The notes under the pieces were generated by a model. The model was not told the DNA's origin. It saw only the letters and a program-made list of their open reading frames with translations, and made no database searches. The position numbers and the translations under genes are program-made. Of a stretch of DNA of 64,000 nt, positions 8,849 to 30,974 are shown piece after piece; within the stretch, counting starts at the first letter, position 1, and each line of letters begins with the position of its first letter. Source of the stretch: a virus (lineage: Duplodnaviria > Heunggongvirae > Uroviricota > Caudoviricetes); the IMG/VR virus record IMGVR_UViG_3300001487_000052, positions 37,503 to 101,502 of that record; one strand, given 5' to 3'.

Positions 8849-11800
8849 ATGGATACAGATATTAGAAAAACAAATAAGATTCCCGGTTGTGAGCAATTAA
8901 CTAGACCTGAAGAAATAGCTGCACTTTCTAAATATCTTGGGGAAATTAAAAGAATCCAAGAAGAACATACGAAACTGGTGGATGAGGGTCTAGAAGTACC
9001 GGGAAGAACAACAGGAAGAATACCCGAAGTATCTGAACTAGGGGATGCTGTTCTTAGCTTAGAGGACACTAGAGAAAAAACCCTAGAGAATACAAGGCTA
9101 GGAATTACAGGAGATAAAAGAACTGTAGAACTAGAGACAGAAAAGGAAAGACTAACAGACACTAAGGAAATAGGACTCTCACAGAAAAAAGAAAGACTAG
9201 AAGACTCACGAGAAACCAGACTAGAAACTAAGTCTGAGGTTCTAAAGGATCAGAGACAGATAACGCTCGGAGATAAGAAGGAAGAACTTAGAGATAATAG
9301 AAATAATAACCTCTCTGAAAAAACCGAGCGTATTAGTATCGATCCTAAAATAGACAGACTAGAAACTAAGTCTGAAGTTCTAGAGGATCAAAGAAAACAG
9401 TTAGGATTAGAGACAAAAGTAGTGGAGGGAGAAAAAAATGAACAACCTACACTCTCTAAGTACACTGATTCCTTAGATGTACAACAGGAAAATACTCTTG
9501 GGAATTATAAAGAAAATCTACAAGACACTAAAGAAGAGCCATCCTTAACAGACTATGTGATAGGACTGGTAAATGAGGATAGAGTTTCCGGATTGTCTGA
9601 TTCTGTTACACCTCTAAATAATTCGAGGGAAGTAGAAAGCCTAGGGGATCATAAAGAGACTATAGATCCTGAGGAGATAGAAAACCTAGGAAACCACAAA
9701 GAAACTATAGAGCCTAGAGTAGTAGAAAATCTTAGGGGACAAATAAAAGACTTGGATGCTTCTCCTGATCCAAAAAGCCTAGAGGATTATAAAGAGACTA
9801 TAGAACCCAGCAAAGACCTAGAAAACTTTGGAACAACTAAGGACAACACAACCATAAATCCTGAAGATGTAAACCTAGAAACAAATAAATCTGATTGGTT
9901 AAGGGGTGTAATTCAAGCAGCCAATGCAAAAAGGGATGAAGATGGATTATATAATACAGCAATACATCTTTTCTCAGAGGAAGGAACGGAGTGGAGTGAG
10001 AGAGTAGCTGCCCTTATGTCTACTTATCTCAGTGGTTCTAGAATAAGTCCGGAAAGAGCAGAAGAATTTGAAGAATTATTAGCAAGTTCATTTGTATATC
10101 CAGGTTCTACTCCACAACAATTAAGACCAGAGAATCAGACAACAAGAGATGGTGGTAATTACGTAGATCCTGATGAAATTAAAAATAATCCATTCGTTCT
10201 TCGTCCAAACTTATATAGACGTGAAGATAATAACAATGGAGATGGACCAACTAGAGACAATAAAACCTGGGATTATGACGAGAACGGAAATTATGTTTTA
10301 ACAACAGGAGAAAATGAAGATGATGCAAGAAATAATCCCCCTTCATTTGGACTGTATCGAGATAATGGCCTAATACGAACTCCCCAGTATGATCTTAATA
10401 TTGGTCCTGCAGATGCCTCTGCTACAGAAAAGTGGAAAAACATTGGTATAAAAGCTCTAAACAAAGGAGGGGTTAGTAGTTACCTTAGATATGCGGCAGA
10501 ACAAGTTGTAGGAATTGGAGATTGGACTAGAGGATCTTTGAGAACACAACTAATAAACGAGGCCCTAGCACTTCTCGTAAGGAGTAGAGACCAGTTAGAG
10601 AAGGTAGCAAAAATTAACAAAGATAGACTCCCCGGTGACGATAATGCGTTAGTATCTGGTCTTGCGAAAGCAGCTAGTGGTGGTCTCGGAAGTGCTCTTG
10701 GTCAATATGGTTATACCGGCTATGATCCTAAGGCTGGTGTACAGAGTTTAATAAAGACTGGAGTTAATATAGGTAAAAACATAGCTGGTGATGTTATTGA
10801 TTATTTCTCTGAGAAAAAAAGTATTCCTGACTATGGATCACCTGTGCCATCAGAACCATTCAATAGACCAAAAGTAGTTGGAAAAGAGGGAAATAAAATA
10901 CTAACTGAAACTACTAAATATGGCTATGGAACAAATACTAGGGAGTTTAGAAGTAATGAGCTTGGTTCAGGATTTTTAATCACACTTAAGGATCTATGTG
11001 GAAAAGATCAGGGTGCTATCAAGACCGGATCATTAGAAGAGCTACAAAAGATATTAACGGAAAGTGAATTAATTACAACCGCAAGTAAGATTAATAAAAG
11101 AATTCAACGAACTCTGGACTCAAATATGTACTGGGAAGTTGTATTAAAACCTTGGGCATACAATTTGGGAGATAAATACTCTAATGGTGGTTATTCATTT
11201 TTACCAAGTATAAAAGAAATTAACACCATAAACCGAGTTGAGCATGGAGTTGATACAACTTATAATAAATGGATTCCTATCTCAAATTTCGAATTACAAA
11301 AATCTAAATTAACAACTAAGTCTCTAGGATTATTTGATGGAGAGATAAACTATCCGGTGACTTCAGAGTATACGAACGAATTTAGGATGACTGTAGTAGA
11401 TGATCAGTGGAAATCATGGAAACATTACTTTCAGAAGTGTTCAGATGTTTCAGTTTATAACTCAGAACCCCATCCAATTGATTATTACAAGGAGACAAAT
11501 CCAATTCCAACCGCAATCGATAAGAGTACTCTTTGTGCTGCTTTCTATAAAAATATAGCATTTAGTATTGAGATCTATATAATGACTCCTCAAATGTCTA
11601 CCATAAGAAAATTCCACATCTTAGCAATATTAAGAGATTTTTCAGAGGAATATACAGGGGAGTCAGACTCTGGCGGTTCAGACTTAAATGTTAGCTTTTC
11701 TATTGTTGGGGAGGTAGATGATAATGATATATACCTAGATGATACATTTATGGATAGGTATAGTGCTAAAAAGGAAATAGACACAATGTTAAATACCCAA

Positions 11801-14227: not shown

Positions 14228-14728
14228 ATGGCAACAGTAGCTGAATTAGTCCGTGGTGGTGACGGATACATGAAATTTATTGACTACACAAGCACGTATA
14301 AGGATGACAATAAAGAATTCCTGCGTGGTGATATGTGGCAATTCGATTTCCTTAACTGGCCTAGAATCGTATATAGTCCTGGTAATTCTATTTTCCATGC
14401 TCGTCTAAATAGTGTCCAGGTAGGTATCGATGGTGCTGTTAATGGTTTCGAGAAGAGAATGAGAGGAAACTTTGTAATTAGACAACAAACCGGTCAAAAT
14501 ACATCGGGTCAGCTCACTCTTAGTTTTATAGACAAGGAAGATCAGGCTATTTCGTACTTTGTTGATGATTGGAAACAGAAAATTGCCGACAGAGATACAA
14601 AATATAGCTTTAGAAAGGATGATGTTGTTGCAGATTGTCAGCTCGTTCTTACCAATTCCAGCCGTCTCGCAGTTAGAACTTTGAAATTCTATAACTGTGT
14701 GATTATGGATGCTCCGCTCGATAAATAA
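14228..14728 (+). CDS. hypothetical 166-aa protein (size compatible with a tail tube/Hcp-like protein; unverified)
   Basis: Size and position directly after a large structural gene. No motif evidence. Confidence 0.3.
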   Translation: MATVAELVRGGDGYMKFIDYTSTYKDDNKEFLRGDMWQFDFLNWPRIVYSPGNSIFHARLNSVQVGIDGAVNGFEKRMRGNFVIRQQTGQNTSGQLTLSFIDKEDQAISYFVDDWKQKIADRDTKYSFRKDDVVADCQLVLTNSSRLAVRTLKFYNCVIMDAPLDK

Positions 14729-15024: not shown

Positions 15025-15068
15025 CCTGGGGTTAGTAGGAAAGAGTCATCCGGAATATTAGCCCCAGG
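15025..15068 (+). promoter_or_regulatory. 5'-leader hairpin (CCTGGGG/CCCCAGG stem, 30-nt loop) 22 nt upstream of the 15091 start
   Basis: Inverted repeat read directly in the sequence. Sits in an unusually long 360-bp noncoding gap. Confidence 0.4.
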
Positions 15069-15090: not shown

Positions 15091-15522
15091 ATGATTATAT
15101 ACAGACAAAAAGAATTTGCCTCGACTAAAGAAAGCAGAGAGAAAGTTAAAGAAGCCAATAAGAAAGACAAGACTAGAAAGAACTTGGAAAGAGCTCAACT
15201 AGGAACTGCTGTTGGTGGTGCTGCGACTATAATTGAAGGAAACAGGTTGAAGAAAGCAGCGGAGAAAATTGAGAAGACTATTAAAGGGAAACCTGTGGAT
15301 ATAAAGAAGGTAGAGAAAATGCAAAAACTCGGAAAAACTGCTAAGACTCTACACAAAACCGCACCTTATCTGATTGCTGCTTCTGCTGGTCTCGAGGCTG
15401 TGAAAATTGCTCGTGATATAAAGAAATCAAAGAAAAAGAAGGAGATTGTATTAGATTCTAAGGCCCCTAAGAAAATGAAGGGAAAGGAATCTAAAAGTGA
15501 TCTCCTGAAACTAGACAAATAA
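15091..15522 (+). CDS. MIIxRQKxF-family basic protein
   Basis: N-terminus MIIYRQKEFAS. Gly-zipper LGTAVGGAATIIEG. Lys-rich. Confidence 0.55.
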   Translation: MIIYRQKEFASTKESREKVKEANKKDKTRKNLERAQLGTAVGGAATIIEGNRLKKAAEKIEKTIKGKPVDIKKVEKMQKLGKTAKTLHKTAPYLIAASAGLEAVKIARDIKKSKKKKEIVLDSKAPKKMKGKESKSDLLKLDK

Positions 15523-15578: not shown

Positions 15579-15621
15579 GCATACAGGGGGAGGGGTGATA
15601 AGTTAAATTTTCCCTGTATGC
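15579..15621 (+). promoter_or_regulatory. perfect 10-bp-stem leader hairpin (GCATACAGGG/CCCTGTATGC) immediately upstream of the 15636 start
   Basis: Inverted repeat read directly. It overlaps the track-proposed ATG at 15618, which argues for the downstream start. Confidence 0.45.
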
Positions 15622-15635
15622 GTATTACAGAAAAA

Positions 15636-16571
15636 ATGATTATATTGAGGATGTTTTCTAAGAAGGGGGATAAAGAAACTGATAAAGAGAAAGTAGTCAA
15701 AGGTAGGGATATTGCGGCAGGTATTGGAATAGGTACTGCAGCTGGAATAGCAGGAGTAGCCGCTAACTCTGCATTTGGGAAAAAACTAAGGAATGCAAAA
15801 TCTATAGACCCCGAAGAAGAGAAAAAACTACGTGAAGAATTAATAAAAAAAGCGAAGAAACAAGGAACCAGGACTATAAATACTAATGCTGAAAATTCAA
15901 TGGCAGTAGGAACCTCAGAAGGGAAAGTAATAAGAAAAGCCTTAGCTAAATTAGCTAAAAAGGATAGAAAAAAGTATGAAGCCATAAAAGAAGCTACGAA
16001 ATATCCTGGAATGGATGGTGTCCTCGAACATATAGGAAAAGATCAAATAATTCTTGGAAAAGGAAGACTCTCTGAAGCGGATGTTCTCTCACATGAGTTG
16101 GGGCATACTCAATTTCTAGAAAAGGGAAGATCAAAGGATGTCATAGCAAAGACAGCTCATAGGCTTAACGCAGTTAGTAAGATGGGGACTATGGGATTAA
16201 AAAGATCTGCTGTATATGGAGCTCATGGATATGCAAATGGTTTAAAGGCCGCTAAAATGGAAAGTGAGGGCAAAAAGGAAAGCTTTGGTCATAGAATTAA
16301 GGCAGCTGGTTTGCCTGCTCTAGTTGCTGCTCCAATATTAATAGCTGAAGGTGCTGCTACTGGTAAAGGATTGAAACTCTTGAAACAGGCTGGAGTAAGT
16401 AAGAGGGCTATGAAAACTGCAAGAAAAACATTAGGAAACGCTTATGGTACCTATGCCTCAATTGCTGCAGGAAATGTTGCAGCTGGAGAAGGAGGAAGAC
16501 TAGTTGGTAAAGCAGTAGGAAAGAAACGTTACAAAAAAGAAAAAGAGAAGGAAAAAGAGAATAAGAAATAA
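15636..16571 (+). CDS. MII-family protein with an HExxH zinc-metallopeptidase-like motif and a C-terminal glycine-zipper/basic tail
   Basis: Start moved from 15618 to the in-frame ATG at 15636, giving MIILRMFSKKGDK. HELGH motif (DVLSHELGHTQF). Gly-zippers AAGIGIGTAAGIAGVAANSAFG and AEGAATGKG. Confidence 0.5.
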   Translation: MIILRMFSKKGDKETDKEKVVKGRDIAAGIGIGTAAGIAGVAANSAFGKKLRNAKSIDPEEEKKLREELIKKAKKQGTRTINTNAENSMAVGTSEGKVIRKALAKLAKKDRKKYEAIKEATKYPGMDGVLEHIGKDQIILGKGRLSEADVLSHELGHTQFLEKGRSKDVIAKTAHRLNAVSKMGTMGLKRSAVYGAHGYANGLKAAKMESEGKKESFGHRIKAAGLPALVAAPILIAEGAATGKGLKLLKQAGVSKRAMKTARKTLGNAYGTYASIAAGNVAAGEGGRLVGKAVGKKRYKKEKEKEKENKK

Positions 16572-16749
16572 TTTTCATTATTTCCATCCTCTACTAAATC
16601 CTACTGTTTCAAGAAGGATCGTGACAGGTGAAAAGTTTAATACACCATATCACTATTTTCTTGATTTTCTTCATCTTTTCAATGTTTTATTATTCTTCAT
16701 AAATAAGGCATTCGAATACCTTTGAGGCGGAATTTCTAAAATACTAAAA

Positions 16750-16797
16750 TTCCCAAGACGACCATAAGAGTCTACCCTTTAATGTGGATCTTGGGAA
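16750..16797 (+). promoter_or_regulatory. conserved structured intergenic element, copy 1 (TTCCCAAGA...CCCTTTAATGTGGA...TCTTGGGAA)
   Basis: 9-bp stem, inner mini-hairpin GACcataagaGTC, conserved loop core CCCTTTAATGTGGA. One of 3 copies with compensatory stem changes. Confidence 0.55.
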
Positions 16798-16799
16798 CT

Positions 16800-17015
16800 A
16801 TGAGAACAAGATATAGAATTACAAAAGAAACCCTCAAAACTTTAGTCCAAGGTACGGGAGGGGAGATTTATAGACTTGAAAGAAAGATCTATAAAAGAAG
16901 AAAAACTAGAACAGGTAGATATTACATGGAAGGATATGAAATAACCTCAATACATATGACCAAAGAGTATGCTGAGAAGATAGGTTTTATTAGGTATACG
17001 TCTTCTTCTGATTAA
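16800..17015 (+). CDS. small basic hypothetical protein (start probably 16800 rather than 16782)
   Basis: The ATG at 16782 lies inside the conserved hairpin element (AATGTGGATC). The in-frame ATG at 16800 gives MRTRYRITKE. Confidence 0.35.
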   Translation: MRTRYRITKETLKTLVQGTGGEIYRLERKIYKRRKTRTGRYYMEGYEITSIHMTKEYAEKIGFIRYTSSSD

Positions 17016-17030
17016 TTTAAAAACCACATT

Positions 17031-17780
17031 ATGACAATCTTAACATCACAATTACCAAGTGGGGGTTTTGGTTATACTTTCCCCACCATTAATGTAAGCC
17101 CAATGACGTTTTTAGAGCTTACACAATATCTAGAGAATGTACCAAAAGATCCTCTAGAAAAATATTTATTCGACATTAAGGTATTAGCAAAAGAAGACCC
17201 AAACATTATGAATTGTTACGTAATGGATGTGGACTTCTTAATTTTTTACCGTAAGCTATGTACAGTCTCTGGGGATCTTAGTTATGATCTCTCTGTTACC
17301 TGTCCGAACTGTGGTAGAACCCTAAAAAAGAAAATTACCCTAGACAAAGACATTCATTTTAAACAGATCGATGACAAGGTAATGACGGGAGCTATGATTG
17401 AATTAGGGGGACATAAATACGAGACTGGTGTTCCTACTGTAAATGATTTTCTTAAAGTATTCGAAAAGTACTTGAGGTATAGGAAGGTTACAGATATTAA
17501 GATGATAAAAACCATAGCCCTCATTAAAGATTTCGAATTTAACGGAAATCAAATAGAACAAGATGTATTAGGGGCAACACACGAAGATATAACCCTTCTA
17601 ATGGCTCTTCGTGATCTATATTATGACAGAGTAGAACCGATTAATATAGTATGCCCTGATTGTAAAGAGAAGGAGGAAGGAGGATTAGTGGCAGTGAGTG
17701 TAGAGAATCTCATTGTCGACTTTTTTCGAGACCTCTATAGGAATAGCCCAATTGATGGATCTAAAATTCTATTTAAATAA
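17031..17780 (+). CDS. zinc-ribbon protein (249 aa)
   Basis: CPNCGRT and CPDCKEK Cys pairs. Co-directional ORF. Confidence 0.5.
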   Translation: MTILTSQLPSGGFGYTFPTINVSPMTFLELTQYLENVPKDPLEKYLFDIKVLAKEDPNIMNCYVMDVDFLIFYRKLCTVSGDLSYDLSVTCPNCGRTLKKKITLDKDIHFKQIDDKVMTGAMIELGGHKYETGVPTVNDFLKVFEKYLRYRKVTDIKMIKTIALIKDFEFNGNQIEQDVLGATHEDITLLMALRDLYYDRVEPINIVCPDCKEKEEGGLVAVSVENLIVDFFRDLYRNSPIDGSKILFK

Positions 17781-18027
17781 GTTCCTGAAGGCTGATAACA
17801 TAGAACATTATACTCTAGCATCCCTTTATAAACTGAAAAAAGTATATGATGACTTCTTAGATAAATCCGAGGGTATAGATCCAGATTTTCCAGGCATGAC
17901 ACTAGGGGATTATGGAAAAGGAGAAAAAATCAAAGGTACTAATTATTATAGTATTTTTGGGGGAGAAGAAAATATACCAGAAGGACATAAAGGAATATTA
18001 GAAGATAGAATACAAGTAAAGAAATAA
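17755..18027 (+). CDS. small hypothetical protein overlapping the end of the upstream gene in the +1 frame
   Basis: ORF 17713-18027 in the track. First ATG-type Met at MDLKFYL. The 68-nt overlap contains a T6 run. Confidence 0.3.
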   Translation: MDLKFYLNKFLKADNIEHYTLASLYKLKKVYDDFLDKSEGIDPDFPGMTLGDYGKGEKIKGTNYYSIFGGEENIPEGHKGILEDRIQVKK

Positions 18028-18036
18028 ATATAGTTT

Positions 18037-18082
18037 TCTCGGGATGGTCTTAGAGCCTGCCCTTTGATGTGGATCCCGAGGA
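18037..18082 (+). promoter_or_regulatory. conserved structured intergenic element, copy 2 (TCTCGGGAT...CCCTTTGATGTGGA...ATCCCGAG)
   Basis: Same loop core as copies 1 and 3. Stem arms are swapped yet still complementary. Ends 29 nt before the 18111 start. Confidence 0.55.
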
Positions 18083-18110
18083 CTAAAGAAAACAGTTAAA
18101 TTACAGAACA

Positions 18111-18944
18111 ATGATTATATTAAGACAGAAACAATATTCACCTGGTTTCTCTGGCATAAAACAAGTACTTAAAAAGAATATTGATAGTGCCAGAATGAAA
18201 CTAGCTGAAAAATTAGATAAATCCATAGAGAAAGATTTAATTGAAAAGAATAGATTTGAAAATTTAGGTACGGAACTCAGTGATAGACTTAGGGAAAGAA
18301 CTATCACTACGGAAGCAGCTGAATCAGATATAGCCAAACGAATAAATTCCGGAGAAAGGATATCAAGAACTCATGCTAAGAATCCTTACATAGAAAACGG
18401 CGAACTAATTCTTCCAAATCCAATATCATCAGGGAAATTATATCATGAGATAGGTCACATAGAAAATGCTAACGGTAATAATGGCAAAATACCACAGTTT
18501 ATTAGTAAACATGGACAAACTCCAGAAAATCTTCGAGAAGTTAATGTTATGGATCTGATTAGTTCTGACTATAGATATTCAGATAGGGCTCAGCGTGAAG
18601 AATTGTTAAGAAATAACCCAGAAACATTAAAGGTGTTAAACGAATCTCTTGGAAATAAAAAACCGGTTGAATCTATAAAAAGATTTATTAAAGGAAAAAC
18701 TTTAGTAAGGGATGAGAGGAATGCTTCAAGATGGGGATTAAAGAAAACAAGAGAGAAAATAAACGACCCTGAGGTATTATCTCTTGAAGAACAGAGACAA
18801 AAAGCTGCGAACGAAACATATAATCGATCTATTTTAGCTTCCAGTAAAATACCTCTAAGGAATAGTATACAGATACCCAGTAAGAGAGGTAATTTTAAAT
18901 TTGATAAACTTAAAGAAGAGTATGATAAAAGAAACCCCAATTAA
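18111..18944 (+). CDS. MII-family protein with an HExxH metallopeptidase-like motif
   Basis: N-terminus MIILRQKQYS. LYHEIGHIEN motif. Confidence 0.55.
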   Translation: MIILRQKQYSPGFSGIKQVLKKNIDSARMKLAEKLDKSIEKDLIEKNRFENLGTELSDRLRERTITTEAAESDIAKRINSGERISRTHAKNPYIENGELILPNPISSGKLYHEIGHIENANGNNGKIPQFISKHGQTPENLREVNVMDLISSDYRYSDRAQREELLRNNPETLKVLNESLGNKKPVESIKRFIKGKTLVRDERNASRWGLKKTREKINDPEVLSLEEQRQKAANETYNRSILASSKIPLRNSIQIPSKRGNFKFDKLKEEYDKRNPN

Positions 18945-19446
18945 AGTAAGAATTTCTGGTTCAGGGAAATCCGCCAAAAAGATAATTAGTATATTAGAAC
19001 AGGGGAATATATCTGGTACTTGGATTGCAGTCTCCCCTAATGAAAAATTACCAGAGAGATATAAAGATTGTCAAGACCCAAAGGAGAATGTAGTAAGAGT
19101 ATTATATGATATTCCCTCTGATTGGTCTATATATAAAATCTCAGAGAAAGACAATGATCATGACTTGGTTGATAGTGTAATAGATGAAGTATATTCTATC
19201 CCCACTAAGAAAACAGTAAAGGAGCTCTGGGATGATTGTAGGTATCTCTGGGTTGTTATTAGTCCTGATTTAAACTATCCACAGTCTTATAACCATGAAA
19301 TCTTAAAACGAAATCAGTGGATAGAAAAAGGAGGATGGACGTTATTTTGTGTAGGCCTGGCAAATACATTAGAGGCGGAAGAAACTATTAGGGAGAAATT
19401 TAAATCCACACTTCCCCCTAATATAATCTACGAAGAAAGAACATAA
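18901..19446 (+). CDS. hypothetical protein (181 aa)
   Basis: ORF overlapping the upstream gene by 44 nt. Lies immediately upstream of the M23-domain tail protein. Confidence 0.45.
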   Translation: MINLKKSMIKETPIKVRISGSGKSAKKIISILEQGNISGTWIAVSPNEKLPERYKDCQDPKENVVRVLYDIPSDWSIYKISEKDNDHDLVDSVIDEVYSIPTKKTVKELWDDCRYLWVVISPDLNYPQSYNHEILKRNQWIEKGGWTLFCVGLANTLEAEETIREKFKSTLPPNIIYEERT

Positions 19447-19462
19447 AACAATAAAACAAAGT

Positions 19463-22400
19463 ATGGCAGAGAGCACAGATAAGAAAACTAGAAAAATTGC
19501 TGAGAAAAGAGTTGAACCAGGTAAGGAGTTTGAAAGTTATCAGGAGGCTCAAAACCAACTTTTAGCTATCCAAGCCGAACAACAACAAAATCTCGCACTA
19601 CAGGCTAATGATGCTATGAATGTACAACAACAAAATCAAACATTAGCACAGGCCGCAGAAGTTATGGCAATGGATAATCTAAACCCGGCTACACAAGGAA
19701 TATTGGCTGGGTATGGATTAAATCAGCCTAGGGTAATAAAACAAAGCAACACCCAAAGACAAGGACCCAACAACATAACCATAAACAATACTACCATAAA
19801 CAACGCTTCAGGTCCCGTTCAAGGTAGAGAAATAAGCATAAGACCACAAGAAGCTGGACAAACTAAATTTAAGGCGTGGTTAACTAATATATTCGCTAGA
19901 CAAGACGCTCAATGGCAAAAACAAAATCAAGAATATGCTAGAAGAGAGAGCTCATTGACTAGGAATTCAAATAAAATGATGAGGAAACTTGAGGGATTAG
20001 GAAAAGAGATAGGGAGTGTTATGGATCCAAGGAAAATAGCAAATACACAGAGAAACCAAATAAAAACACTTCTAACTATCATTGGGTTACCGTTATTGGC
20101 TAAATATCTCCCGAAAGTTTTTGAGAAAATTAATGGAATAGAAAAATCTGTTACTGGGTGGTTTAAGGAATTTAAGGAGAACGCAGGTGATAAAATAAAA
20201 GACTTGTTTGGCATAAAAGGAGATAAAGGAATATTAGAATCACTCCTATCGTCTCTACATAATCAAAATGAAGATGGTGTTCTTGATATAATCTTAAAAA
20301 AGATAAATGAATGGTTAACAGAGCATATAGACTTAGCCAACAAAATTTCTCCAATTAATGTTTCTCTCCTAAATCCAGGTGAATCCCTAAAATCTTTTGC
20401 TGATTGGTTATCTATTGTGTTAGGTGGTACAAAGCAAGCAAATAGGTTTGTAAACAACCAAAAGCGATTAGATTTAATAGGAGGTTTATCAGATCAAAAC
20501 AAAAAAGAAGAGGACTTCCAAGTTAGTGCGTTATCTACTGGAGAGGAGGATAAAGAAATATTTGATGGTAAAGGACATCGAATCTTAATGAATAGGAAAG
20601 AAACTAATAGAGGCTCGGCTGAGATTGACTCTAATACAAGCTCAGAACAACTCTATTCTGAATTTTCCTCCTGGGCAAGTGAAAAGGGCCTTAAACCAAC
20701 AAAAAGTAATTTAAATGAATACTTAAGGCAAAGGGATGACGTTACCTACACAGGAGAAGCCATAATTCTAACAAAAAGTGTTCATGATTCAGCAAAAAAA
20801 GGATATTTAGTTTTTTCTGATGAAGACTTGAATTTTTGGAAGGATGGAATAAGTGGAGAAAATTGGTATGGTTCACTAGCAGCATCATTAGATATAGTCG
20901 CTAATATAAAAAAAAAGTCAGTGACAATAACTAAGGAAAACCCAAGTGCAGTAAATGGGACACATAAAATTACCTCATCTAGAGAGAAAGAAAAGAGTAT
21001 ATTACCTAACAGAATTCTACTCTTGCTCAATTTACTGCTTAAGGCAGCGAAGAGATATGGTCCCCAACCAGTATTTAATTCTTTCTTAACTATGTTTTTT
21101 GATATTGGGAAGATATCTCAACTTGAAGAAGATGAAGTCTTAGTACCTCAAAAATTTAAGCTCATTAGAGAACGAATGACTGAGAATGATAGACAGAGAT
21201 ATTGGCCAAGGGGAAGGAAAGGATATTCAAATTTCTATAAAAAAATAGTAATGCAAAATGTAACTGGAAAGGCATTAAAATTAAAAGAAAAAGATTTTAA
21301 TGGAAATGAGAACAAAGATAGTTGGGAAATTTATAGAATTTCTGCCCAAGGTATCGCTAACATATTAGAGATGACAACAAAAAGTTCTGAAGAGACATAT
21401 ACTGAAGAGGCACAGAGGTGGTTAATAGATTATTTAGTTAGGAATAAAAAAGTTTCTAATCAAACCGTCACTTATGATATAGATGAAGATTATCAAAAAA
21501 CAATGGATAATATTTCAGCAGCACAGGCGGAAGAAGATCAGACCAGACTCAATTTAGCACTCACTCATGAAACTAAACAAACAGAGGGATATTCACAAGA
21601 GGATGCTAACTCCTATGTCGATTCAGGTAAATCAAAGATTAAACAAGATATACCTAGGGTTAGTTATGTAGAGAGATCTTCGGATTTCAGATCACCATAT
21701 TCTGTAACAGATGAGGAAAAAAGTAAGTCACCTAGATTAGTAATTGGTAAATCTATTAGTGGTGTAACAAAAGCTTTTGGTGGTACAGGAGCCTTAACTA
21801 GTAATTTCATGGAATGGAGAGACAGTAGGTTTCATTATGGAATCGATTTAGCAAATTCTGCTGGAGATGAAGTAAAGTATCCGGGTTACGGAACAATAAT
21901 GCAAAGTGGGAGAACTAACAAAAGTGGAACATACATTGATATAAAAGATGAACGTGGATATACTACAAGATATTATCACGCTAGACTTTATGGTGGACTA
22001 CAACCAGGTAGTAAGGTAACACCAGGACAACCAATAGGAATTACAGAAAGAAAAGGTGAGAATGGAAATTCTACTTACCCGCATATTCACGTAGAGGTTC
22101 ATGACCCAGATTGGAGCAAACAGGCTGGCAAGGAGTATCAACATAAACACTATGTAAATCCTTTAGTTTACTGGAGTAGACATAAAGCTGAGAAACAACA
22201 AGTATTACAACCCAATACTGATAATTCGCCAGATGAATCAGTAAGTATACAGCAAAATACAGGAGTCATTCCAGCATCTGGTGGTCCCGACTTCGATATA
22301 TCACCGCAAGAAGCTTTATCCCCTAAAATCAATAGCAGGGTTAAAGTTGAATTACCACATAAATTTATAGATATTAATAAAAAAGAACTAGGTTCAACAA

Positions 22401-22600
22401 ATAATAGGTCTGAAATAGAATCTCCTACTAATCAAGTTTTAGCTGCTGGATTTCAAGCAACCATAACTAATGATCAAAATGGTTATCAGATTTTATCTGC
22501 ACAATTAGCTTCAATTGAGAGTAAATTAAGTGCTATCATGGTTACTTCTGGTTCTAAACAAAAACCAAGTGCCTCTTCAATCACAACTAAAGATATATAA
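19463..22600 (+). CDS. coiled-coil tail protein with a C-terminal M23 (LytM-type) peptidase domain; tape-measure-like or virion-associated lysin
   Basis: Q/A-rich N-terminal region. M23 signatures FHYGIDLA, YYHARL and PHIHVEVHD around nt 21800-22110. Confidence 0.65.
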   Translation: MAESTDKKTRKIAEKRVEPGKEFESYQEAQNQLLAIQAEQQQNLALQANDAMNVQQQNQTLAQAAEVMAMDNLNPATQGILAGYGLNQPRVIKQSNTQRQGPNNITINNTTINNASGPVQGREISIRPQEAGQTKFKAWLTNIFARQDAQWQKQNQEYARRESSLTRNSNKMMRKLEGLGKEIGSVMDPRKIANTQRNQIKTLLTIIGLPLLAKYLPKVFEKINGIEKSVTGWFKEFKENAGDKIKDLFGIKGDKGILESLLSSLHNQNEDGVLDIILKKINEWLTEHIDLANKISPINVSLLNPGESLKSFADWLSIVLGGTKQANRFVNNQKRLDLIGGLSDQNKKEEDFQVSALSTGEEDKEIFDGKGHRILMNRKETNRGSAEIDSNTSSEQLYSEFSSWASEKGLKPTKSNLNEYLRQRDDVTYTGEAIILTKSVHDSAKKGYLVFSDEDLNFWKDGISGENWYGSLAASLDIVANIKKKSVTITKENPSAVNGTHKITSSREKEKSILPNRILLLLNLLLKAAKRYGPQPVFNSFLTMFFDIGKISQLEEDEVLVPQKFKLIRERMTENDRQRYWPRGRKGYSNFYKKIVMQNVTGKALKLKEKDFNGNENKDSWEIYRISAQGIANILEMTTKSSEETYTEEAQRWLIDYLVRNKKVSNQTVTYDIDEDYQKTMDNISAAQAEEDQTRLNLALTHETKQTEGYSQEDANSYVDSGKSKIKQDIPRVSYVERSSDFRSPYSVTDEEKSKSPRLVIGKSISGVTKAFGGTGALTSNFMEWRDSRFHYGIDLANSAGDEVKYPGYGTIMQSGRTNKSGTYIDIKDERGYTTRYYHARLYGGLQPGSKVTPGQPIGITERKGENGNSTYPHIHVEVHDPDWSKQAGKEYQHKHYVNPLVYWSRHKAEKQQVLQPNTDNSPDESVSIQQNTGVIPASGGPDFDISPQEALSPKINSRVKVELPHKFIDINKKELGSTNNRSEIESPTNQVLAAGFQATITNDQNGYQILSAQLASIESKLSAIMVTSGSKQKPSASSITTKDI

Positions 22601-22602
22601 AT

Positions 22603-23883
22603 ATGAATGGATGGTATTATGACGAACAATTGAATAATCCACTAACTTCAGTTTCCCTTCATCCAAATCAACTTTACGTAGGTGGAGAATGGGTTAATGT
22701 AACAGAAATAACTATAGATAATGTTTCTCATAAACCCGACGATGAAAAATTTGTAACTCAGGCTGGTGATCAAATAGTTGGGTATGATATAGTTCCTATA
22801 GCTACTTCAATTATTTCAGAAGACTTCAATGTTGCAGTAGCCAATACGTGGTCCCCATATGGCAGTGGAGAGGAGATAACTAGTTTATGGAATTCTTTTA
22901 GATCAGCCGCACCTTATGTAGATTCAATAAGAAGAGGTTTAAAAGAAGTTAATAAGACTCTAGAAACAGAAGAAGACGATGGCGCTGTAGTAACTTTTTT
23001 AAAAAGTGTAGGAGGTCTCGTTTCAAATAGTTATGATGCTAATCTAGGACTTTTGCAACATAGATTAAATGATCACCTTATAACTCAAGGAACTAGATTT
23101 TCATACTATGCGGGCTCAGGTATTGCATTTGGTGGACTAGGAATGAAATATACTATATTTCCTAAGTTTGATAATGTAAATGGTTTCATTTCCGTAATAA
23201 AACAGATCCAACAGTTATATCCATATGTAAATGGAAAGCTGGAAATAGAAACGTATGATGTTGTAAAAAATGCAATAATGGAATGGAAAGAAACAATCTC
23301 TGGGAAAAATAAAATAAAAGAGAAAGGTGATGCTTGGTTTAATAGTGCCTTAAACTCGGTAGATAAATTAATAGATGACGCAAAAACAGCGACAGGAAAA
23401 GGAGAGACTGGTAAAGCAGAGGCCACTACAGCCTGGACTAATCTTAAAAGTAAATTTAAAGATATAACAGACACAACGTTAAGTATTGCCGATGATATAG
23501 TAAAAGCGATTTTAGATGCCGGTCTCTTAGCCTGGCAAAAAGCTCCTGGTGGATTTAAGCCGTATTATAAAGATATCGATATAGCACTTCAAGGCACTTT
23601 AAAACTAAGAATAGGAACGCAGTATTCCATATCTTCACTTTTGTGTCAAGATGTATCATTAAATTTTTCAAAGACGATGGTGAAAAATCCAGAAGATGGG
23701 ACAATATCCCCGCTATATTGTGATGTCACCATGAATTTAATTCCAGCCACAAAATTTTCTAATACCTCCTTAGAAAAATTTGTAAGAGGTGATTTTAATC
23801 AAAATAGGGGTACAATCAGTAATGAATTAAATAAAAAGCTACAACAAGAAAAAGAGCTGATCCAACAAACTTATTCACTCTAA
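22603..23883 (+). CDS. hypothetical structural protein (426 aa)
   Basis: Long co-directional ORF. Confidence 0.5.
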   Translation: MNGWYYDEQLNNPLTSVSLHPNQLYVGGEWVNVTEITIDNVSHKPDDEKFVTQAGDQIVGYDIVPIATSIISEDFNVAVANTWSPYGSGEEITSLWNSFRSAAPYVDSIRRGLKEVNKTLETEEDDGAVVTFLKSVGGLVSNSYDANLGLLQHRLNDHLITQGTRFSYYAGSGIAFGGLGMKYTIFPKFDNVNGFISVIKQIQQLYPYVNGKLEIETYDVVKNAIMEWKETISGKNKIKEKGDAWFNSALNSVDKLIDDAKTATGKGETGKAEATTAWTNLKSKFKDITDTTLSIADDIVKAILDAGLLAWQKAPGGFKPYYKDIDIALQGTLKLRIGTQYSISSLLCQDVSLNFSKTMVKNPEDGTISPLYCDVTMNLIPATKFSNTSLEKFVRGDFNQNRGTISNELNKKLQQEKELIQQTYSL

Positions 23884-23887
23884 TATT

Positions 23888-24193
23888 ATGTACAGAAAAA
23901 AAAATAAAATAATAACAGCTAAAAATGATCCTTCCAATTACGTTTTTGGATATGATATTTATGATTCACTCCTTTTCTCACTCATTAACGATACGACTTT
24001 AGAGCGGGAAAATCATGAAATTACTGTACATGAATATCGACCAGACTTAATTGCACAGGATATTTACGGATCTACTTCTTATCTTGGTCTTTTTCTACTT
24101 CAAGTCAAAAAACCCCTTGCTGACTTAAAGAGAGGGACTATTTTAAGTGTTCTACCAAAAACTGTACTAGATACTATAATTAAAAATATGTGA
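23888..24193 (+). CDS. hypothetical protein (101 aa)
   Basis: ORF. Its stop overlaps the next start. Confidence 0.4.
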   Translation: MYRKKNKIITAKNDPSNYVFGYDIYDSLLFSLINDTTLERENHEITVHEYRPDLIAQDIYGSTSYLGLFLLQVKKPLADLKRGTILSVLPKTVLDTIIKNM

Positions 24194-25290
24194 GTATGAC
24201 AGAAATGGTAAATACACAAAACATTTCTATAGAGTTAACTCCTTGGACTGATCAATACTTCTCTATAGATTGGCTACAGCTTAAGGAAGAGCTTGGGGGA
24301 AATCTACCTGTAGGAAAAGCATCTCTAATATTCCCAAGAAATGAAGATTCTTTAAACTTATTGCTGGAAGAAAATACAGGGAAACTCTTATTTTCAGATA
24401 ATAATGATTCAGGATTTAATTTTGAACTTCCCATCTTCATAACTTCTAGAGGATACAATGAAAATGCATTAGTAATAGATTTTACATGTACTCCCTCCAA
24501 TAAGTTTTTTGAAGAACGAATCTCTGGGACCTACGATAATATACAAAATGCCATAGAAACAGTATATCCAGGTACTCTCGATATTAGAGTAGAATCTGAT
24601 CAAAATAATGAACAAAAAATCCACCAAAACTGTGAGACGTCTTTAAACTTTCTTAGACGACTTGGGTATTCTTATAAAGCAGATACTGTTTTTGGATTTT
24701 CTTGGACAGGTTTTTTGATTAAGGATATAATAGGGACGAGTTCTACAGGGAAAGATGAAAGTATAGATGATGACCTTCCAGAGATTATTGGTGGTGGAAC
24801 TGGAAATCTCACGAACACTCAACCCTATACTCTTACCTATAGTAGAAAAGAGAACTATCCTGTTATTAATCCCTGGACCGACGAAGATAATACATTACAA
24901 GAAACATATTCTGACTATATTCCAAAAAATGTAATTTCAGTATTAGGTACAACGTATTATATTTGTCGAGCAGGGTTTGAGGATATGATTAAAAACTATA
25001 TCATAAATACTACAAAGATTAATGCTGGCTATAGCGTAAAATATTCTATTACTGGCTCTCTTATGCCAAATTCTTATAGGCTAGGAGACCTCATTAAATA
25101 TAGAAGAGCTGATGATGAAGAATATATTAATGATCCAGACTACTATACCAAGTGTTTAGTCTTTAGCAATGAAGTGTTTATAGGAAATGGTCAAGATATT
25201 GTTGGTCCTCATGGTTTTAACTTTGAATGGACTACAGAACTCAGAGGTATAGAAGAAGGACCTTGGACTAAAATTAAAGAAACAGAATAA
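24190..25290 (+). CDS. hypothetical structural protein (366 aa)
   Basis: Long co-directional ORF. Confidence 0.5.
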   Translation: MSMTEMVNTQNISIELTPWTDQYFSIDWLQLKEELGGNLPVGKASLIFPRNEDSLNLLLEENTGKLLFSDNNDSGFNFELPIFITSRGYNENALVIDFTCTPSNKFFEERISGTYDNIQNAIETVYPGTLDIRVESDQNNEQKIHQNCETSLNFLRRLGYSYKADTVFGFSWTGFLIKDIIGTSSTGKDESIDDDLPEIIGGGTGNLTNTQPYTLTYSRKENYPVINPWTDEDNTLQETYSDYIPKNVISVLGTTYYICRAGFEDMIKNYIINTTKINAGYSVKYSITGSLMPNSYRLGDLIKYRRADDEEYINDPDYYTKCLVFSNEVFIGNGQDIVGPHGFNFEWTTELRGIEEGPWTKIKETE

Positions 25291-25296
25291 ACAAAA

Positions 25297-25343
25297 TTCC
25301 CAGGACGATCTAAGAATCTACCCTTTAATGTGGATCCTGGGAA
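25297..25343 (+). promoter_or_regulatory. conserved structured intergenic element, copy 3 (TTCCCAGGA...CCCTTTAATGTGGA...TCCTGGGAA)
   Basis: Stem differs from copy 1 by a compensated A-to-G / T-to-C pair. Inner mini-hairpin GATctaagaATC is also compensated. Confidence 0.55.
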
Positions 25344-25392: not shown

Positions 25393-25767
25393 ATGGACAA
25401 AAACGACTTCAGGCTTAGATTCTTGCATAAAAAATTATATCTTAAAGAATTCTCCCCTCGTGCTAATTTAGGTCTTCTTTATTACAAAAATAACAAAAAA
25501 GCAATATACTCTGTTTTGTTTAATGTAGTAAATGAAGGAAGAGAACTAATTATAAGAGATATACCAAAAACCTTAGACTTAGATCTTGATATCGCTGTTA
25601 TTGCTGTGGAGAGGCTATTAGAGTTATTAGATCCAGATATAACACACGCAATGATTAATTCATCCTGGCAATTTGAGTTTTATAGTAGAAAATTAAACTT
25701 CTATAGAAAACATCCATATTCTTGTATGATGACTTTTGAAAAATCAACAGAAGGATATGTTTTTTAA
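25393..25767 (+). CDS. hypothetical protein (124 aa), first gene of the accessory island
   Basis: ORF downstream of element copy 3. Confidence 0.35.
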   Translation: MDKNDFRLRFLHKKLYLKEFSPRANLGLLYYKNNKKAIYSVLFNVVNEGRELIIRDIPKTLDLDLDIAVIAVERLLELLDPDITHAMINSSWQFEFYSRKLNFYRKHPYSCMMTFEKSTEGYVF

Positions 25768-25939
25768 GTGGATAATCATAGTGGCCCTTATTCTTGGTTT
25801 CATAGGGGCAATAGTAAGTTTCATCCGGTTAGCAAATAAAAAAGATACCACCCCCATACAATTAATAGCTATGGCCTTGGATATTGCTTATTTTCCAGGA
25901 GGGGCCGTTCTTTTACTTTGGATATTAGGTATTATATGA
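25736..25939 (+). CDS. small two-helix membrane protein (holin-like topology; speculative)
   Basis: 67 aa with two hydrophobic helices (WIIIVALILGFIGAIVSFI; FPGGAVLLLWILGII). Confidence 0.3.
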   Translation: MKNQQKDMFFKWIIIVALILGFIGAIVSFIRLANKKDTTPIQLIAMALDIAYFPGGAVLLLWILGII

Positions 25940-26202
25940 AAATTGGTAAAGAAAGGGACTTGGTGTATATATTCCCTAAAAAGAAGGGACACAAATATTA
26001 TAAACCCGGACTAAAGGCATTCATAAAACTCTTGAATGGTAAGGTTTGTACAGGGGTTTTGTATTTTAAAGTCGACCAAAATAGGAATTTTATAGTGGAA
26101 GACCAACAATCTGCTGCACTAGACCATGAGAATATAAAACGAGCTTTTGCGACTTGGTTCTTATCTATTCCAGGGACAAATAAAATAATATGGTTAAAGT
26201 AA
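25918..26202 (+). CDS. hypothetical protein (94 aa)
   Basis: ORF only. Confidence 0.3.
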   Translation: MDIRYYMKIGKERDLVYIFPKKKGHKYYKPGLKAFIKLLNGKVCTGVLYFKVDQNRNFIVEDQQSAALDHENIKRAFATWFLSIPGTNKIIWLK

Positions 26203-29704: not shown

Positions 29705-30252
29705 TGATAATATTTAGAGAAAAATTATTTAGAAGGGATGATGTTTCTGATAATGATTTAAAGCAACTACTTGATGATCCAGACCTAGTTAAAGAATACG
29801 GTCCCTCCGAGTTGATTATAATAGCTTCAAAAAAATATAATGAGGATCTGAAAAAACTAGGAATAAAAGGTAGTGCTGATAGAAACGTACTAGAAAAATT
29901 AAAAAAGGATGTAAGAAGCGGATACCTATTTAATGATGGTCCTGGAAAGGGAGATACACACCCGTTAGGAGATTTTTCTAAAAAAGATAAATCTTATGTA
30001 TTTTCTAAAAAGATATCAGAACAGCATAGATTTAACTATCGAATCTTTCCACCAAAATTAGAACTGGATGATAAAACAGGAAAACTCAGATACGGAAGAA
30101 AAGTTATATTAGTTTCTTGTTATGGCCATGAAACAGAAGAAGGGGATTATTTAAATGATAAAAATCTCCGCTCTAGGAAGAATAGAATGAGAGGAAATGC
30201 GCCTTATCGTAAATCTGAATCTATAATGAAGAAAAAGAAAAAAAATAGATGA
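29701..30252 (+). CDS. MIIxREK-family protein
   Basis: N-terminus MMIIFREKLFRR. ATGA overlap with 30249. Confidence 0.5.
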   Translation: MMIIFREKLFRRDDVSDNDLKQLLDDPDLVKEYGPSELIIIASKKYNEDLKKLGIKGSADRNVLEKLKKDVRSGYLFNDGPGKGDTHPLGDFSKKDKSYVFSKKISEQHRFNYRIFPPKLELDDKTGKLRYGRKVILVSCYGHETEEGDYLNDKNLRSRKNRMRGNAPYRKSESIMKKKKKNR

Positions 30253-30662
30253 TAAAATACATAGGTAACGATAATTTTAATGTAGATGGAGAAATAATAA
30301 AATCTACTGACTTAATCGAGGGTTGTGTGGGTTGGTATTTTAAACATGTGAGTAGCTGGCTGTGGAATGAGAAAAAACTTTGGGATCCTGAGCTAGATGA
30401 ATCTATTATCAGTCGTGTAAAAACTATTGCCATTATTCTTAGCCTCCGAACCTCATCTCCAATTTCTTACTACATAATAGACTTCCAAACACCTAGGATA
30501 TGCTATTTCAAAGTTTTATATGAAGATTACCTAGATATACGATTAACTTTTACATATGACCAAGTAAATTCGTTTTCTATGATGACCGACCCTAACTACC
30601 CTGGAGATATAATGACAATAGAAAATATAAGCATTCAAGATATAATAGAAATAATTAAATAA
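30249..30662 (+). CDS. MIKYIGND-family protein, paralog B
   Basis: N-terminus MIKYIGNDNF. Paralog of 27229-27648. Confidence 0.45.
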   Translation: MIKYIGNDNFNVDGEIIKSTDLIEGCVGWYFKHVSSWLWNEKKLWDPELDESIISRVKTIAIILSLRTSSPISYYIIDFQTPRICYFKVLYEDYLDIRLTFTYDQVNSFSMMTDPNYPGDIMTIENISIQDIIEIIK

Positions 30663-30739: not shown

Positions 30740-30974
30740 CAAAATAAAGATGAAGATAGGAGACTGTTTTTATCTTTTTTGTTTGCTGTGGAATGGTTTA
30801 AGGGGGTGGAGTGGTTCCCTTCGAGACGAGCGTAGCGAAGTCGAGATCCAACTCGAACTAATAAATCAAAGCTAAGTATTTTAAGCGGAACGCTTTAATA
30901 ATATAGCTTTAAATCTCTAGTTCGAATAATTACCAAGAGAGCCGCCTTCCCGGTGCCCGCCAGAATTCTATTAC

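Follow-up and report, generated by a model that had tools for sequence, protein, structure and literature searches.

The window, a stretch of 64,000 nucleotides of phage DNA, carries three copies of an RNA element of about 47 nt that represents a previously uncatalogued family (it is absent from Rfam 15) and that appears, from sequence matches, to be widespread in phages and prophages of gut and rumen Bacteroidales. Judged by its genomic context, the element is probably part of polycistronic mRNAs; it has the sense orientation, lies a few nucleotides past stop codons, and is independent of any particular gene family. Our preferred reading, to which we assign a probability of roughly 0.4, is that it serves as a cis-acting intercistronic "punctuation" of the mRNA, for processing or for protection from decay, by functional steps that we infer.

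Together with its related sequences, the element describes a three-way junction, in which a closing stem (P1, 7 to 10 bp) is followed by a hairpin (P2, 3 to 5 bp), the dinucleotide UA, a further hairpin (P3, 3 bp closing the hexaloop UUYRAU), a single A, and the 3' strand of the closing stem (P1'). The initial annotation had described three structured copies with pairing under selection, and both their positions and the pairing are borne out. The copies and their parts are as follows.

16750-16797, + strand: motif copy 1, CM score 79.6 bits
16750-16758/16789-16797, + strand: copy 1 P1
C16759, + strand: copy 1 J12
16760-16762/16770-16772, + strand: copy 1 P2, loop CATAAGA
16773-16774, + strand: copy 1 J23, TA
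16775-16777/16784,16786-16787, + strand: copy 1 P3, with T16785 bulged
16778-16783, + strand: copy 1 P3 hexaloop, TTTAAT
A16788, + strand: copy 1 J31; 3' flank CTAT
Layout of copy 1: TTCCCAAGA / c / GAC-cataaga-GTC / ta / CCC-tttaat-GtGG / a / TCTTGGGAA
18036-18082, + strand: motif copy 2, CM score 71.6 bits
18036-18045/18073-18082, + strand: copy 2 P1, 10 bp, with the wobble T18037·G18081
18046-18048/18055-18057, + strand: copy 2 P2, GGT/GCC, loop CTTAGA
18058-18059, + strand: copy 2 J23, TG
18060-18062/18069,18071-18072, + strand: copy 2 P3, hexaloop TTTGAT at 18063-18068
CTAAAG, + strand: copy 2 3' flank
25297-25343, + strand: motif copy 3, CM score 81 bits
25297-25305/25335-25343, + strand: copy 3 P1
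C25306, + strand: copy 3 J12
25307-25309/25316-25318, + strand: copy 3 P2, GAT/ATC, loop CTAAGA
25319-25320, + strand: copy 3 J23, TA
25321-25323/25330,25332-25333, + strand: copy 3 P3, hexaloop TTTAAT at 25324-25329
A25334, + strand: copy 3 J31; 3' flank CAAT

The 16-nt core CCCTTTRATGTGGATC has exactly three exact occurrences in the window; a one-mismatch match at 42384 is a chance hit, located within a 1769-aa ORF and without the stem. A generic scan of the window for the architecture returned just the three copies, each on the + strand, and their folding energies range from -17 to -19 kcal/mol (z = -1.7 to -3.8). For copy 2, the end given by the initial annotation holds, but the stem starts one base earlier, at 18036, and has 10 bp including one T·G pair; its arms, which had been called swapped, instead show three double compensatory changes and one U·G wobble relative to copy 1. 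The differences reported between copies 1 and 3, from A:T to G:C in the outer stem and from GAC/GTC to GAT/ATC in the inner hairpin, are correct.

Further copies keep their pairing, as the argument for selection on structure had anticipated: across 49 distinct homologues from elsewhere, 97.5% of the stem cells of P1 and P2 are paired, and double changes occupy 175 cells against 50 ± 7 in shuffles (0/500). When the stem registers are shifted by 1 to 3 columns, pairing falls to 33 to 48%. P1 and P2 covary strongly, and RNAalifold, unaided, recovers both of them and part of P3. The covariation of P3 is found between sequence classes; its pairs occur in five versions (CCC/GGG, GUA/UAC, GCA/UGC, CUG/CAG, and CCU/GGG), and all three pairs are formed in 54 of 58 candidates picked without any requirement for P3 pairing. 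Neither P3 with its T-loop-like hexaloop nor the sister class (B), which has a different core, GUA-UUCRAU-UAC, figured in the initial annotation. The two classes differ in their P3 stems and have UA...UUYRAU...A in common. About 20 near-invariant nucleotides sit in the junctions and one loop, with the invariance of the type A core inflated because the pattern used to fish most homologues demanded that core. UUYRAU is present in 61/61 members and adjoins the 3' strand of P1 in each, in a loop and stem whose sizes are unlike those of a T-arm. The single-stranded flank is conserved as well, with A/U at -1 and C-N-A, often CUAA, after the stem.

A junction of this kind could be a small ribozyme of a new, self-cleaving class, by which the polycistronic transcript would be cut at gene boundaries, with classes A and B and the orphan motif DUF2693-FD as interchangeable ribozyme classes, in the way that hammerhead, twister, and pistol are interchangeable in other phages. 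The small size of the three-way junction (~47 nt), with its near-invariant nucleotides in junctions and one loop, would suit such an activity, as would its intergenic, sense-strand location without ties to a gene family. Different motif classes also share the niche and even a contig, given that DUF2693-FD and a type A copy lie within the same 550-nt intergenic stretch of L064. Nevertheless, we consider this reading highly improbable: the Rfam models of known self-cleaving ribozymes (hammerhead, twister, twister-sister, pistol, hatchet, and HDV-like) gave no match, either at gathering score or at E ≤ 10, the two classes share nothing but the short segment given above around different P3 stems, and most orphan motifs of such size are, to our knowledge, not ribozymes.

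In total, 61 distinct members were found; they come from metagenomes of the rumen and the human gut, from genomes of Bacteroides and Parabacteroides, and from BS-TP3, a cultured Bacteroides phage. The lytic, myovirus-like phage of the window shares its core with L064, L265, and BS-TP3, which are temperate phages with an integrase and a CI-like repressor. Because it is common to the lytic phage, the temperate phages, and the Parabacteroides and Bacteroides genomes, we favor a host factor over a phage factor as its reader. When 185,579 genomes were scanned for the core, at least 120 loci had a single match each, and none of the matches listed lay in a CRISPR array; a CRISPR repeat mimic (a solitary repeat unit or RNA anti-CRISPR) found no support, as no regularly spaced repeats were seen among the matches listed (at least 120 loci).

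On the opposite strand, 33 wobble cells would become A·C mismatches, and 33 of 49 elements follow an ORF of their own strand within 60 nt (at a median of 12 nt), against 4 of 49 for antisense ORFs. Because of these G·U pairs and the gene context, we assign the structure to the sense-strand RNA. All three window copies are intergenic, as had been claimed: copy 1 lies 178 nt past the stop of ORF 15618-16571 and 2 nt ahead of ATG 16800, copy 2 is separated by 8 nt from the preceding TAA of ORF 17713-18027 and by 28 nt from the following ATG 18111, and copy 3 by 6 nt from the TAA of ORF 24190-25290 and by 49 nt from ATG 25393. The initial annotation had placed the elements 15 to 45 nt upstream of a gene start, but these distances are 2, 28, and 49 nt, and the tighter link is with the preceding stop codon, at a median of 12 nt family-wide. 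Neither this coupling nor the wide spread in Bacteroidales phages figured in the initial annotation. A tRNA-His gene in the window (30666-30740) starts 3 nt past a stop codon; it provides a precedent for the element, since it is likewise embedded after a stop and must be excised from the mRNA. Contig L297 has a copy between each of three consecutive genes, 3 nt past the stop for two of the three copies and 157 nt for the third, and all of them 17 nt before the next start.

The proximity to start codons might suggest that the element acts on translation of the downstream gene as an operator or insulator, either as a repressor-bound fold or as a fold that sets the 5' limit of the unstructured, A-rich leader required by Bacteroidetes ribosomes. 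Lytic contigs typically have the next start 17 to 30 nt beyond the stem, copy 1 ends just ahead of its ATG, and the genes of the window phage are without Shine-Dalgarno sequences, all of which would agree with such a role. Yet the next ORF is 250 to 900 nt away in the temperate phages, the spacing to the start codon is far looser than that to the upstream stop, and the downstream genes are unrelated to one another, and we regard an operator as very unlikely.

In the temperate phages, the one copy present comes between the first early gene and a long, structured non-coding leader, and in those of Bacteroides the early operon that carries it is divergent from the CI-like repressor. Such an arrangement would be no less compatible with regulation of the nut/put kind than with punctuation, and perhaps more so. 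In such a case, the nascent fold would bind the elongating host RNA polymerase, directly or via a Nus-type or phage factor, as a processive antitermination or anti-Rho signal, so that transcription would then pass downstream terminators and module boundaries. The lambda nutR site lies just past the first gene of the early operon, and the copies of BS-TP3 and L265, followed by their long leaders, have a similar place, one per operon, downstream of the operon promoter and upstream of terminators, which does not apply to L297 or to the late-gene copies of the window; the core kept across unrelated phages would suggest a host target, and the element lies just past stop codons and is therefore untranslated. 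However, antitermination would need fewer copies than the one at each gene boundary in L297 or the three that 9 kb of late structural genes contain in the window, no evident terminators follow the window copies, and there is neither boxA/boxB nor a two-hairpin put architecture, no linear conserved box beyond C-N-A, and no Rfam match. On balance, antitermination is possible but unlikely.

Sequence comparison also indicates that the elements are present at cassette boundaries. Homology with L038, a 96%-identical relative of the window, breaks exactly at the elements, in agreement with the module boundaries first suggested: it extends from 17031 to 18028 and sets in again at 19463, the junctions hold the elements, and the cassette is found on one side of the element in the window and on the other side in L038. 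Contig L059, which is otherwise unrelated, has a copy that matches copy 3 with 98% identity over 56 nt, and classes A and B interchange at one syntenic site upstream of a 249-aa gene (window versus L038 to L041), where L043 has a simple hairpin that is likewise flanked by CUAA. These observations would be expected of a recombination linker or selfish repeat (PeSL-, REP-, or MITE-like), the sequence of which would be kept by mediating homologous cassette exchange or by spreading itself, while the RNA fold would be incidental or a generic stabilizer. A linker would need sequence identity rather than pairing, however, and here the stems vary freely and the pairing is kept; moreover, all copies are in sense orientation, and no target-site duplications or terminal repeats were found past the stem itself. 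We therefore judge a linker quite unlikely as the primary role. Under the punctuation reading, the recurrence of the same short sequence at many gene junctions could still make it a crossover point for cassette swapping, as a by-product.

Two readings proposed initially, processing by RNase III as at T7 R-sites and a phage-specific promoter, would match the intergenic place in a phage operon and the stem-loop fold, but we give them very little credence. RNase III needs roughly two helical turns (~20 bp) of duplex; the closing stem of the window copies has 9 to 10 bp, and P1 (7 to 10 bp) stacked on P3 (3 bp) reaches at most ~13 bp. Against a promoter, whether of the Bacteroidetes (TTTG/TAnnTTTG), sigma-70, or phage-specific kind, stand the strand-specific wobble pairs and the lack of a conserved duplex motif at a fixed distance: upstream positional information is nil except for A/U at -1, and TAnnTTTG is found in 2/61 upstream and 3/61 downstream flanks. 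An intrinsic terminator was also rejected, with TTTT within 12 nt past the stem in 3/61 members and in 0/3 window copies.

In the punctuation reading, a host (Bacteroidales) RNA-binding or RNA-cleaving factor would recognize the element by its compact fold and by the conserved nucleotides that flank it as single strands, and next to the stem the transcript would be cut or its decay halted. In this way, neighboring cistrons might acquire a folded end that resists exonucleases, and a lifetime of their own, and the leader of the next gene would be kept clear of upstream pairing. A decay barrier alone does not explain the ~20 near-invariant nucleotides, since a simple hairpin would suffice. It is tempting to speculate that the factor could be a reader of tRNA-like shapes, as hinted by the T-loop-like hexaloop that would stack beside the closing stem. 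The bolder version, in which phage mRNAs would be cut into gene-sized pieces via the motif and its sister classes, either as a mimic of the tRNA acceptor and T-arm that recruits host tRNA-processing RNases or as a new self-cleaving ribozyme, is doubtful; if true, the T-loop mimic would be a bacterial-virus version of mitochondrial "tRNA punctuation."

The likeness to tRNA is weak. The T-loop pentanucleotide UUCRA forms part of the hexaloop (UUCRAU/UUURAU), P3 leads directly into the 3' strand of P1, much as a T-stem is joined to its acceptor stem (a predicted stack of ~12 to 13 bp), the 3' flank reads A-C-N-A (A-C-(U/A)-A), and the element is embedded after a stop codon like the phage's tRNA-His. 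However, the loop has 6 nt rather than 7 and the stem 3 bp rather than 5, there is no anticodon arm and no CCA, and the first pair is U-A or A-U, not G1-C72. ARAGORN and the Rfam tRNA model found only tRNA-His in the window, and the tRNA model gave no match at E ≤ 10 near copies 1 and 2. T7 R-sites, which are ~20-bp interrupted duplexes recognized as duplexes, are likewise structured RNAs at gene boundaries of phage polycistronic mRNA, and the same outcome, defined and protected mRNA ends, is proposed here, although the 9- to 10-bp stem of the element encloses two small hairpins. With lambda nut and HK022 put, the element shares a cis-acting RNA fold just past a stop codon in a temperate-phage early operon and a conserved core that suggests a host target, but its architecture is different, nothing like boxA was found, and there are multiple copies, both in late structural operons and at one gene boundary after another. 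PeSL cassettes of T4-like phages combine an early promoter with a terminator stem-loop (PMC2839356, PMC4122927). They too are short repeated intergenic motifs that flank variable cassettes in a myovirus, at break-points of modular exchange, whereas our element is without promoter motif or U-tract and has a conserved three-way junction as its interior.

No Rfam 15 family matched the window copies at gathering score, and none did so at E ≤ 10 over 16650-18200. The same holds for the model of DUF2693-FD (RF02926), an orphan RNA motif (Weinberg et al. 2017, PMC5737381) with a gathering threshold of 44.5 bits for its Rfam covariance model, which scores 76.8 bits on L064. The junctions and loops of DUF2693-FD (UGA, GCAa, and a 5-bp P3 with the loop AGCGAGA) are unrelated in sequence to those of the element, and the UUYRAU hexaloop is absent from it. 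Like the element, it has three stems in ~49 nt, a closing stem with the base CCC.../...GGG, a tiny second hairpin, and a third hairpin that abuts the 3' strand of the closing stem, and it is intergenic in Bacteroidales phages and prophages. DUF2693-FD is thus the closest known motif, not of the same family, yet sharing both architecture and niche with the element.

All genes in the copy-bearing part of the window lie on the + strand. The initial annotation had reported three copies of a structured intergenic element there, and all three are present on that strand.

Motif copies and recognizable tail-module genes
14228-14728, +, tail-tube gene
16750-16797, +, motif copy 1
17031-17780, +, gene for a T4-baseplate-like protein of 249 aa
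18036-18082, +, motif copy 2
19463-22600, +, gene for an M23-peptidase/tape-measure-like protein of 1045 aa
25297-25343, +, motif copy 3

The 64-kb window contains the 16-nt core CCCTTTRATGTGGATC without mismatch three times and no more; its lone near-match, at 42384, was dismissed because it lies within a 1769-aa ORF and lacks a flanking stem. The motif is a three-way junction of about 47 nt, in which a closing stem (P1) encloses P2, the bases UA, and P3 with its hexaloop UUYRAU, followed by A and the returning strand P1'. Each copy folds with a closing stem of 9 to 10 bp at -17 to -19 kcal/mol (z = -1.7 to -3.8 against shuffled sequences). The compensatory differences listed between copies 1 and 3 proved correct, whereas the stem arms of copy 2, described as swapped, instead show three double changes and one U·G wobble relative to copy 1. 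No Rfam 15 family matched the whole window at the gathering score, nor the surroundings of copies 1 and 2 at E ≤ 10.

In IMG/VR, the 37 matches to the exact loop core were chance hits or one unrelated coding sequence, and relatives were instead reached via the neighboring 249-aa protein, with homologues on seven IMG/VR contigs (61 to 96% identity), and via a longer degenerate core. The closest relative, contig L038, has a copy of the window's type (type A, with a CCC/G(Y)GG P3) at 9709-9760, ahead of its tape-measure gene. At 6365-6409, ahead of its 249-aa gene, the closing stem is as in type A and the interior differs; this type B interior, G-UAGUAUUCRAUUACA-C, is kept in contigs L039-L041, L057, L059, and L060, with stems that covary freely. 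Type A sequences were collected by degenerate-core scans of viral, genome, and metagenome sets and then by a covariance-model search, a check proposed in the initial annotation, which found further copies with covarying stems in other genomes. There are at least 53 type A matches, at least 49 of them distinct, in IMG metagenome contigs, human-gut assemblies, Parabacteroides sp. An277, Ca. Parabacteroides intestinavium, and a Bacteroides MAG, all counts of motif members resting on pieces of contigs. A diverged copy occurs at 25670-25714 of PQ571276.1, the record of BS-TP3, a cultured temperate Bacteroides phage and the sole isolate reached, via a noncoding RNA downstream of the motif; isolate phage databases held nothing matching the 10-kb region, the protein in the tail-sheath position, or copy 3. 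Types A and B form one family, since they can be laid side by side after P2 (U-A, three bases, U-U-Y-R-A-U, the complement, A, and P1'), and at least 61 distinct members show the full anatomy according to our own parser. Part of the near-invariance seen in the type A core is artefactual, as most sequences were found with a pattern demanding it; copies found by the model alone do vary there (UUCAAU, UUCGAU, CCU).

The proposal that selection acts on structure is well borne out. In the 49 distinct type A sequences, whose alignment was fitted to the covariance model, 97.5% of P1 and P2 cells are paired, and both sides of a pair have changed in 175 stem cells, against 50 ± 7 in shuffles (0/500). 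Sliding the stem registers by 1 to 3 columns reduces pairing to merely 33 to 48%, and RNAalifold independently recovers the same stems. The joint MAFFT alignment of both types was left out of the pair counts because two single-base indels were placed at its ends. P3, for which statistics come from our own parser, pairs as CCC/G(Y)GG with a bulged Y in type A (two variants without the Y still pair), and as GUA/UAC in type B, GCA/UGC in contigs L267 and L272, CUG/CAG in L303, and CCU/GGG in BS-TP3. All three pairs still form in 54 of 58 candidates when P3 pairing is not imposed; the other four look like chance sequences. The hexaloop includes a T-loop pentanucleotide, UUCRA or UUURA. Two elaborations of this fold were rejected: a larger 5-bp P3 (UCUAC/GUGGA), suggested by the single-sequence minimum free energy structure of copy 3, has two outer pairs that compete with covarying P2 pairs, and a pseudoknot of the P2 loop (CUNAGA) with the P3 loop or the CUAA flank shows no consistent covariation by eye across members.

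The fold belongs to the sense strand and is generic to gene boundaries. G·U or U·G occupies 33 of 562 type A stem cells, which would be mismatches on the opposite strand, and antisense ORFs adjoin at most 4 of the 49 elements. The preceding same-strand stop codon lies at a median distance of 12 nt (≤60 nt in 33/49). In contig L297, a copy separates each of three successive genes; two of the three copies begin 3 nt past the upstream stop and the third 157 nt past it, and the gap to the next start is 17 nt every time. The next ORF starts 17 to 50 nt downstream in lytic-type contigs and 250 to 900 nt downstream in gut temperate phages, where a conserved noncoding region of about 330 nt follows the element. 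Little is conserved in the flanks apart from A/U at -1 and, behind the stem, C-N-A (frequently CUAA). Of 61 members, two have the Bacteroidetes -7 box TAnnTTTG in the upstream flank and three have it in the downstream flank, and three are followed by a U-run. The downstream genes share no common family. Such flanks and a gene-independent position argue that the element is not a promoter, a canonical terminator, or a gene-specific regulator. The phage-specific promoter of the initial annotation thus loses its footing; a promoter or an RNase III site is the least probable of the functions weighed, T7 R-sites being alike in placement only. A translational operator or insulator would suit the short distance to the next start in lytic-type contigs, and we regard it as improbable. 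In temperate phages, a single copy follows the first early gene (BS-TP3 gp29, contig L265). Lambda nutR likewise sits after the first early gene, and this shared position makes antitermination or an anti-Rho role a serious, if unlikely, rival.

The roughly 330-nt region is apparently noncoding and ends just before the next gene. It is found in contig L270 (4800-5140), in L233, L265, L209, L311, L203, L234, and L256, and, unannotated, in BS-TP3 (PQ571276.1, about 25720-26045; L314 2780-3105). It shows compensatory changes (GACUGCCCUAAGCAGUC versus GACUGAACUAUAACAGUC; CCAG...CUGG versus CCGG...CCGG) and has no Rfam match. Upstream of BS-TP3 gp36, a terminator-like hairpin (L314 5039-5069), UCCCGG...CCGGGA followed by ACUA and eight U, shares its stem base and ACUA flank with the motif but lacks the three-way junction.

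Other features of the window were also seen. Leaders ahead of start codons are A-rich and lack a Shine-Dalgarno sequence, as is typical for Bacteroidota; translation initiation in Bacteroidales hosts is not Shine-Dalgarno guided. A second conserved hairpin at 15579-15621, whose stem covaries (GCATACAG/CTGTATGC versus GCTATAGG/CCTATAGC), stands out against the phage's other genes in that its loop, GGGGAGGGGTGATAAG..., matches the complement of the 3' end of 16S rRNA over a long stretch; its 3' arm contains the start codon of ORF 15618. It recurs in L039 (6474-6512), L040 (7172-7210), L041 (2020-2064 and 9248-9292), and L062 (about 7963-8008). Downstream of the tail-tube gene, a hairpin at 15025-15068 (CCTGGGGT...GCCCCAGG, then TTTAAAAG), possibly an attenuating terminator, has a counterpart in L038 (4227-4264) that keeps the stem but not the loop. 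Between the tube and tape-measure genes, ORFs 17031-17780 and 17713-18027 share 68 nt; a tail-chaperone pair with programmed frameshifting is usually located here. The proteins of the variable tail-module ORFs 15091-15522, 15618-16571, and 18111-18944 begin with M-I-I-(L/K/R)-R-(Q/K)-K-(E/Q)-(F/Y), as do genes after elements in L066, L216, L241, and L059, and two of the window proteins bear HExxH motifs; this start looks like a common N-terminal tag of exchangeable "cargo," e.g., virion-targeted or ejected proteins. A tRNA-His (GUG) at 30666-30740 starts 3 nt past the stop of ORF 30249-30662, has an encoded G-1 and the trailer CAAAAT, and must be excised from the operon transcript. It precedes a 535-nt noncoding stretch (30875-31410), possibly a regulatory region or an origin, in which three repeats include CCTCACTA.

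The motif marks seams where Bacteroidales phages swap gene cassettes. Window and L038 are homologous at the DNA level from exactly 17031 to 18028 and again from 19463 onward. The window's chaperone genes are followed by the element, a two-gene cassette, and the tape measure; those of L038, by a four-gene cassette, the element, and the tape measure. Copy 3 and an L059 copy with unrelated flanks are 98% identical across 56 nt. The site ahead of the 249-aa gene holds type A and an extra small ORF in the window, type B in L038-L041, a plain 9-bp hairpin and then the same AUCUAA in L043, and nothing in L042. A role as recombination linker would account for the seams but leaves the covariation unexplained, and as the main cause of the motif's persistence it seems distinctly unlikely. 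Size, conserved junctions, and class swapping at one site would be consistent with a new class of self-cleaving ribozyme, which we consider very improbable.

We favor, with a probability of about 0.4, intercistronic punctuation, in which the motif would act in cis on polycistronic mRNA through a host factor. Next to the stem, the mRNA may be cut or its decay arrested, and neighboring cistrons would gain folded, protected ends and independent lifetimes. This preference follows from the single element at each L297 boundary, the tight placement past stop codons, a plain hairpin that can stand in for the motif, the absence of transcription signals, and the phage's own tRNA-His, embedded likewise 3 nt past a stop codon with no encoded CCA. 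Against it count some 20 conserved nucleotides beyond the needs of a mere decay barrier, and the nutR-like placement in temperate phages. Strong selection maintains the motif in phages that differ widely yet belong to one host order; it occurs in lytic phages, temperate phages, and prophages, and its three covarying stems and near-invariant core indicate a shared host factor and some general step in the expression of phage genes. Bacteroidales phages dominate human gut and rumen viromes, and to our knowledge almost nothing is known of how their mRNAs are made, cut, and stabilized. The motif is small enough for direct biochemistry, is present in the cultured pair BS-TP3/Bacteroides salyersiae, and would be a ready-made part for Bacteroides operon design.

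Several known systems invite comparison. The Cas12a repeat, UCUAC...GUAGA, resembles the motif's UCUAC...GUGGA, but the pairing is unconserved (A·C in GCGGA variants), part of the stem is P2, and no CRISPR arrays of the core were among the matches listed in the genome scan. A diversity-generating retroelement (DGR) target-site hairpin, an idea prompted by the ...YCGD ending of the gene before gut copies, was rejected, as no TR/VR-like repeat turned up in either L265 or L234 and the preceding gene encodes a small early protein. Likeness to tRNA is partial: it extends to T-loop sequence, the A-C-N-A flank, and possibly stacking geometry but not to tRNA models, the first pair, loop size, or CCA. 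T4-type PeSLs lie at cassette seams and carry a promoter and a terminator (PMC2839356, PMC4122927); the motif behaves in the same way at seams, without either signal. We found no description of the motif in the literature searched, and the family is absent from Rfam 15; it may be among the 8,495 unnamed candidates that an automated survey listed for IMG/VR intergenic regions (PMC10690425).

The nearest catalogued relative in shape and niche is the 49-nt orphan DUF2693-FD (RF02926), which shares the CCC/GGG closing-stem base and likewise has a very small second hairpin and a third one against the 3' strand. Contig L064 carries a genuine one at 2814-2862 (-; 76.8 bits), with a type A copy some 450 nt farther downstream. 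It follows two genes, WYL_2/DUF2693 and one of 83 aa, in a temperate early operon, and a CI-like repressor lies opposite; this locus, which also includes 3118-3447 (-), has a weak partial match to the DUF2693 RNA motif next to the DUF2693-FD RNA. A tie between our motif and DUF2693/WYL_2 was rejected, as the gene occurs in L064 but not among the window ORFs tested, and the downstream genes are unrelated. Because their junctions and loops are unrelated to those of DUF2693-FD, whose covariance model did not detect the window copies, the window elements are not members of that family, and we treat them as a new sister family to it.
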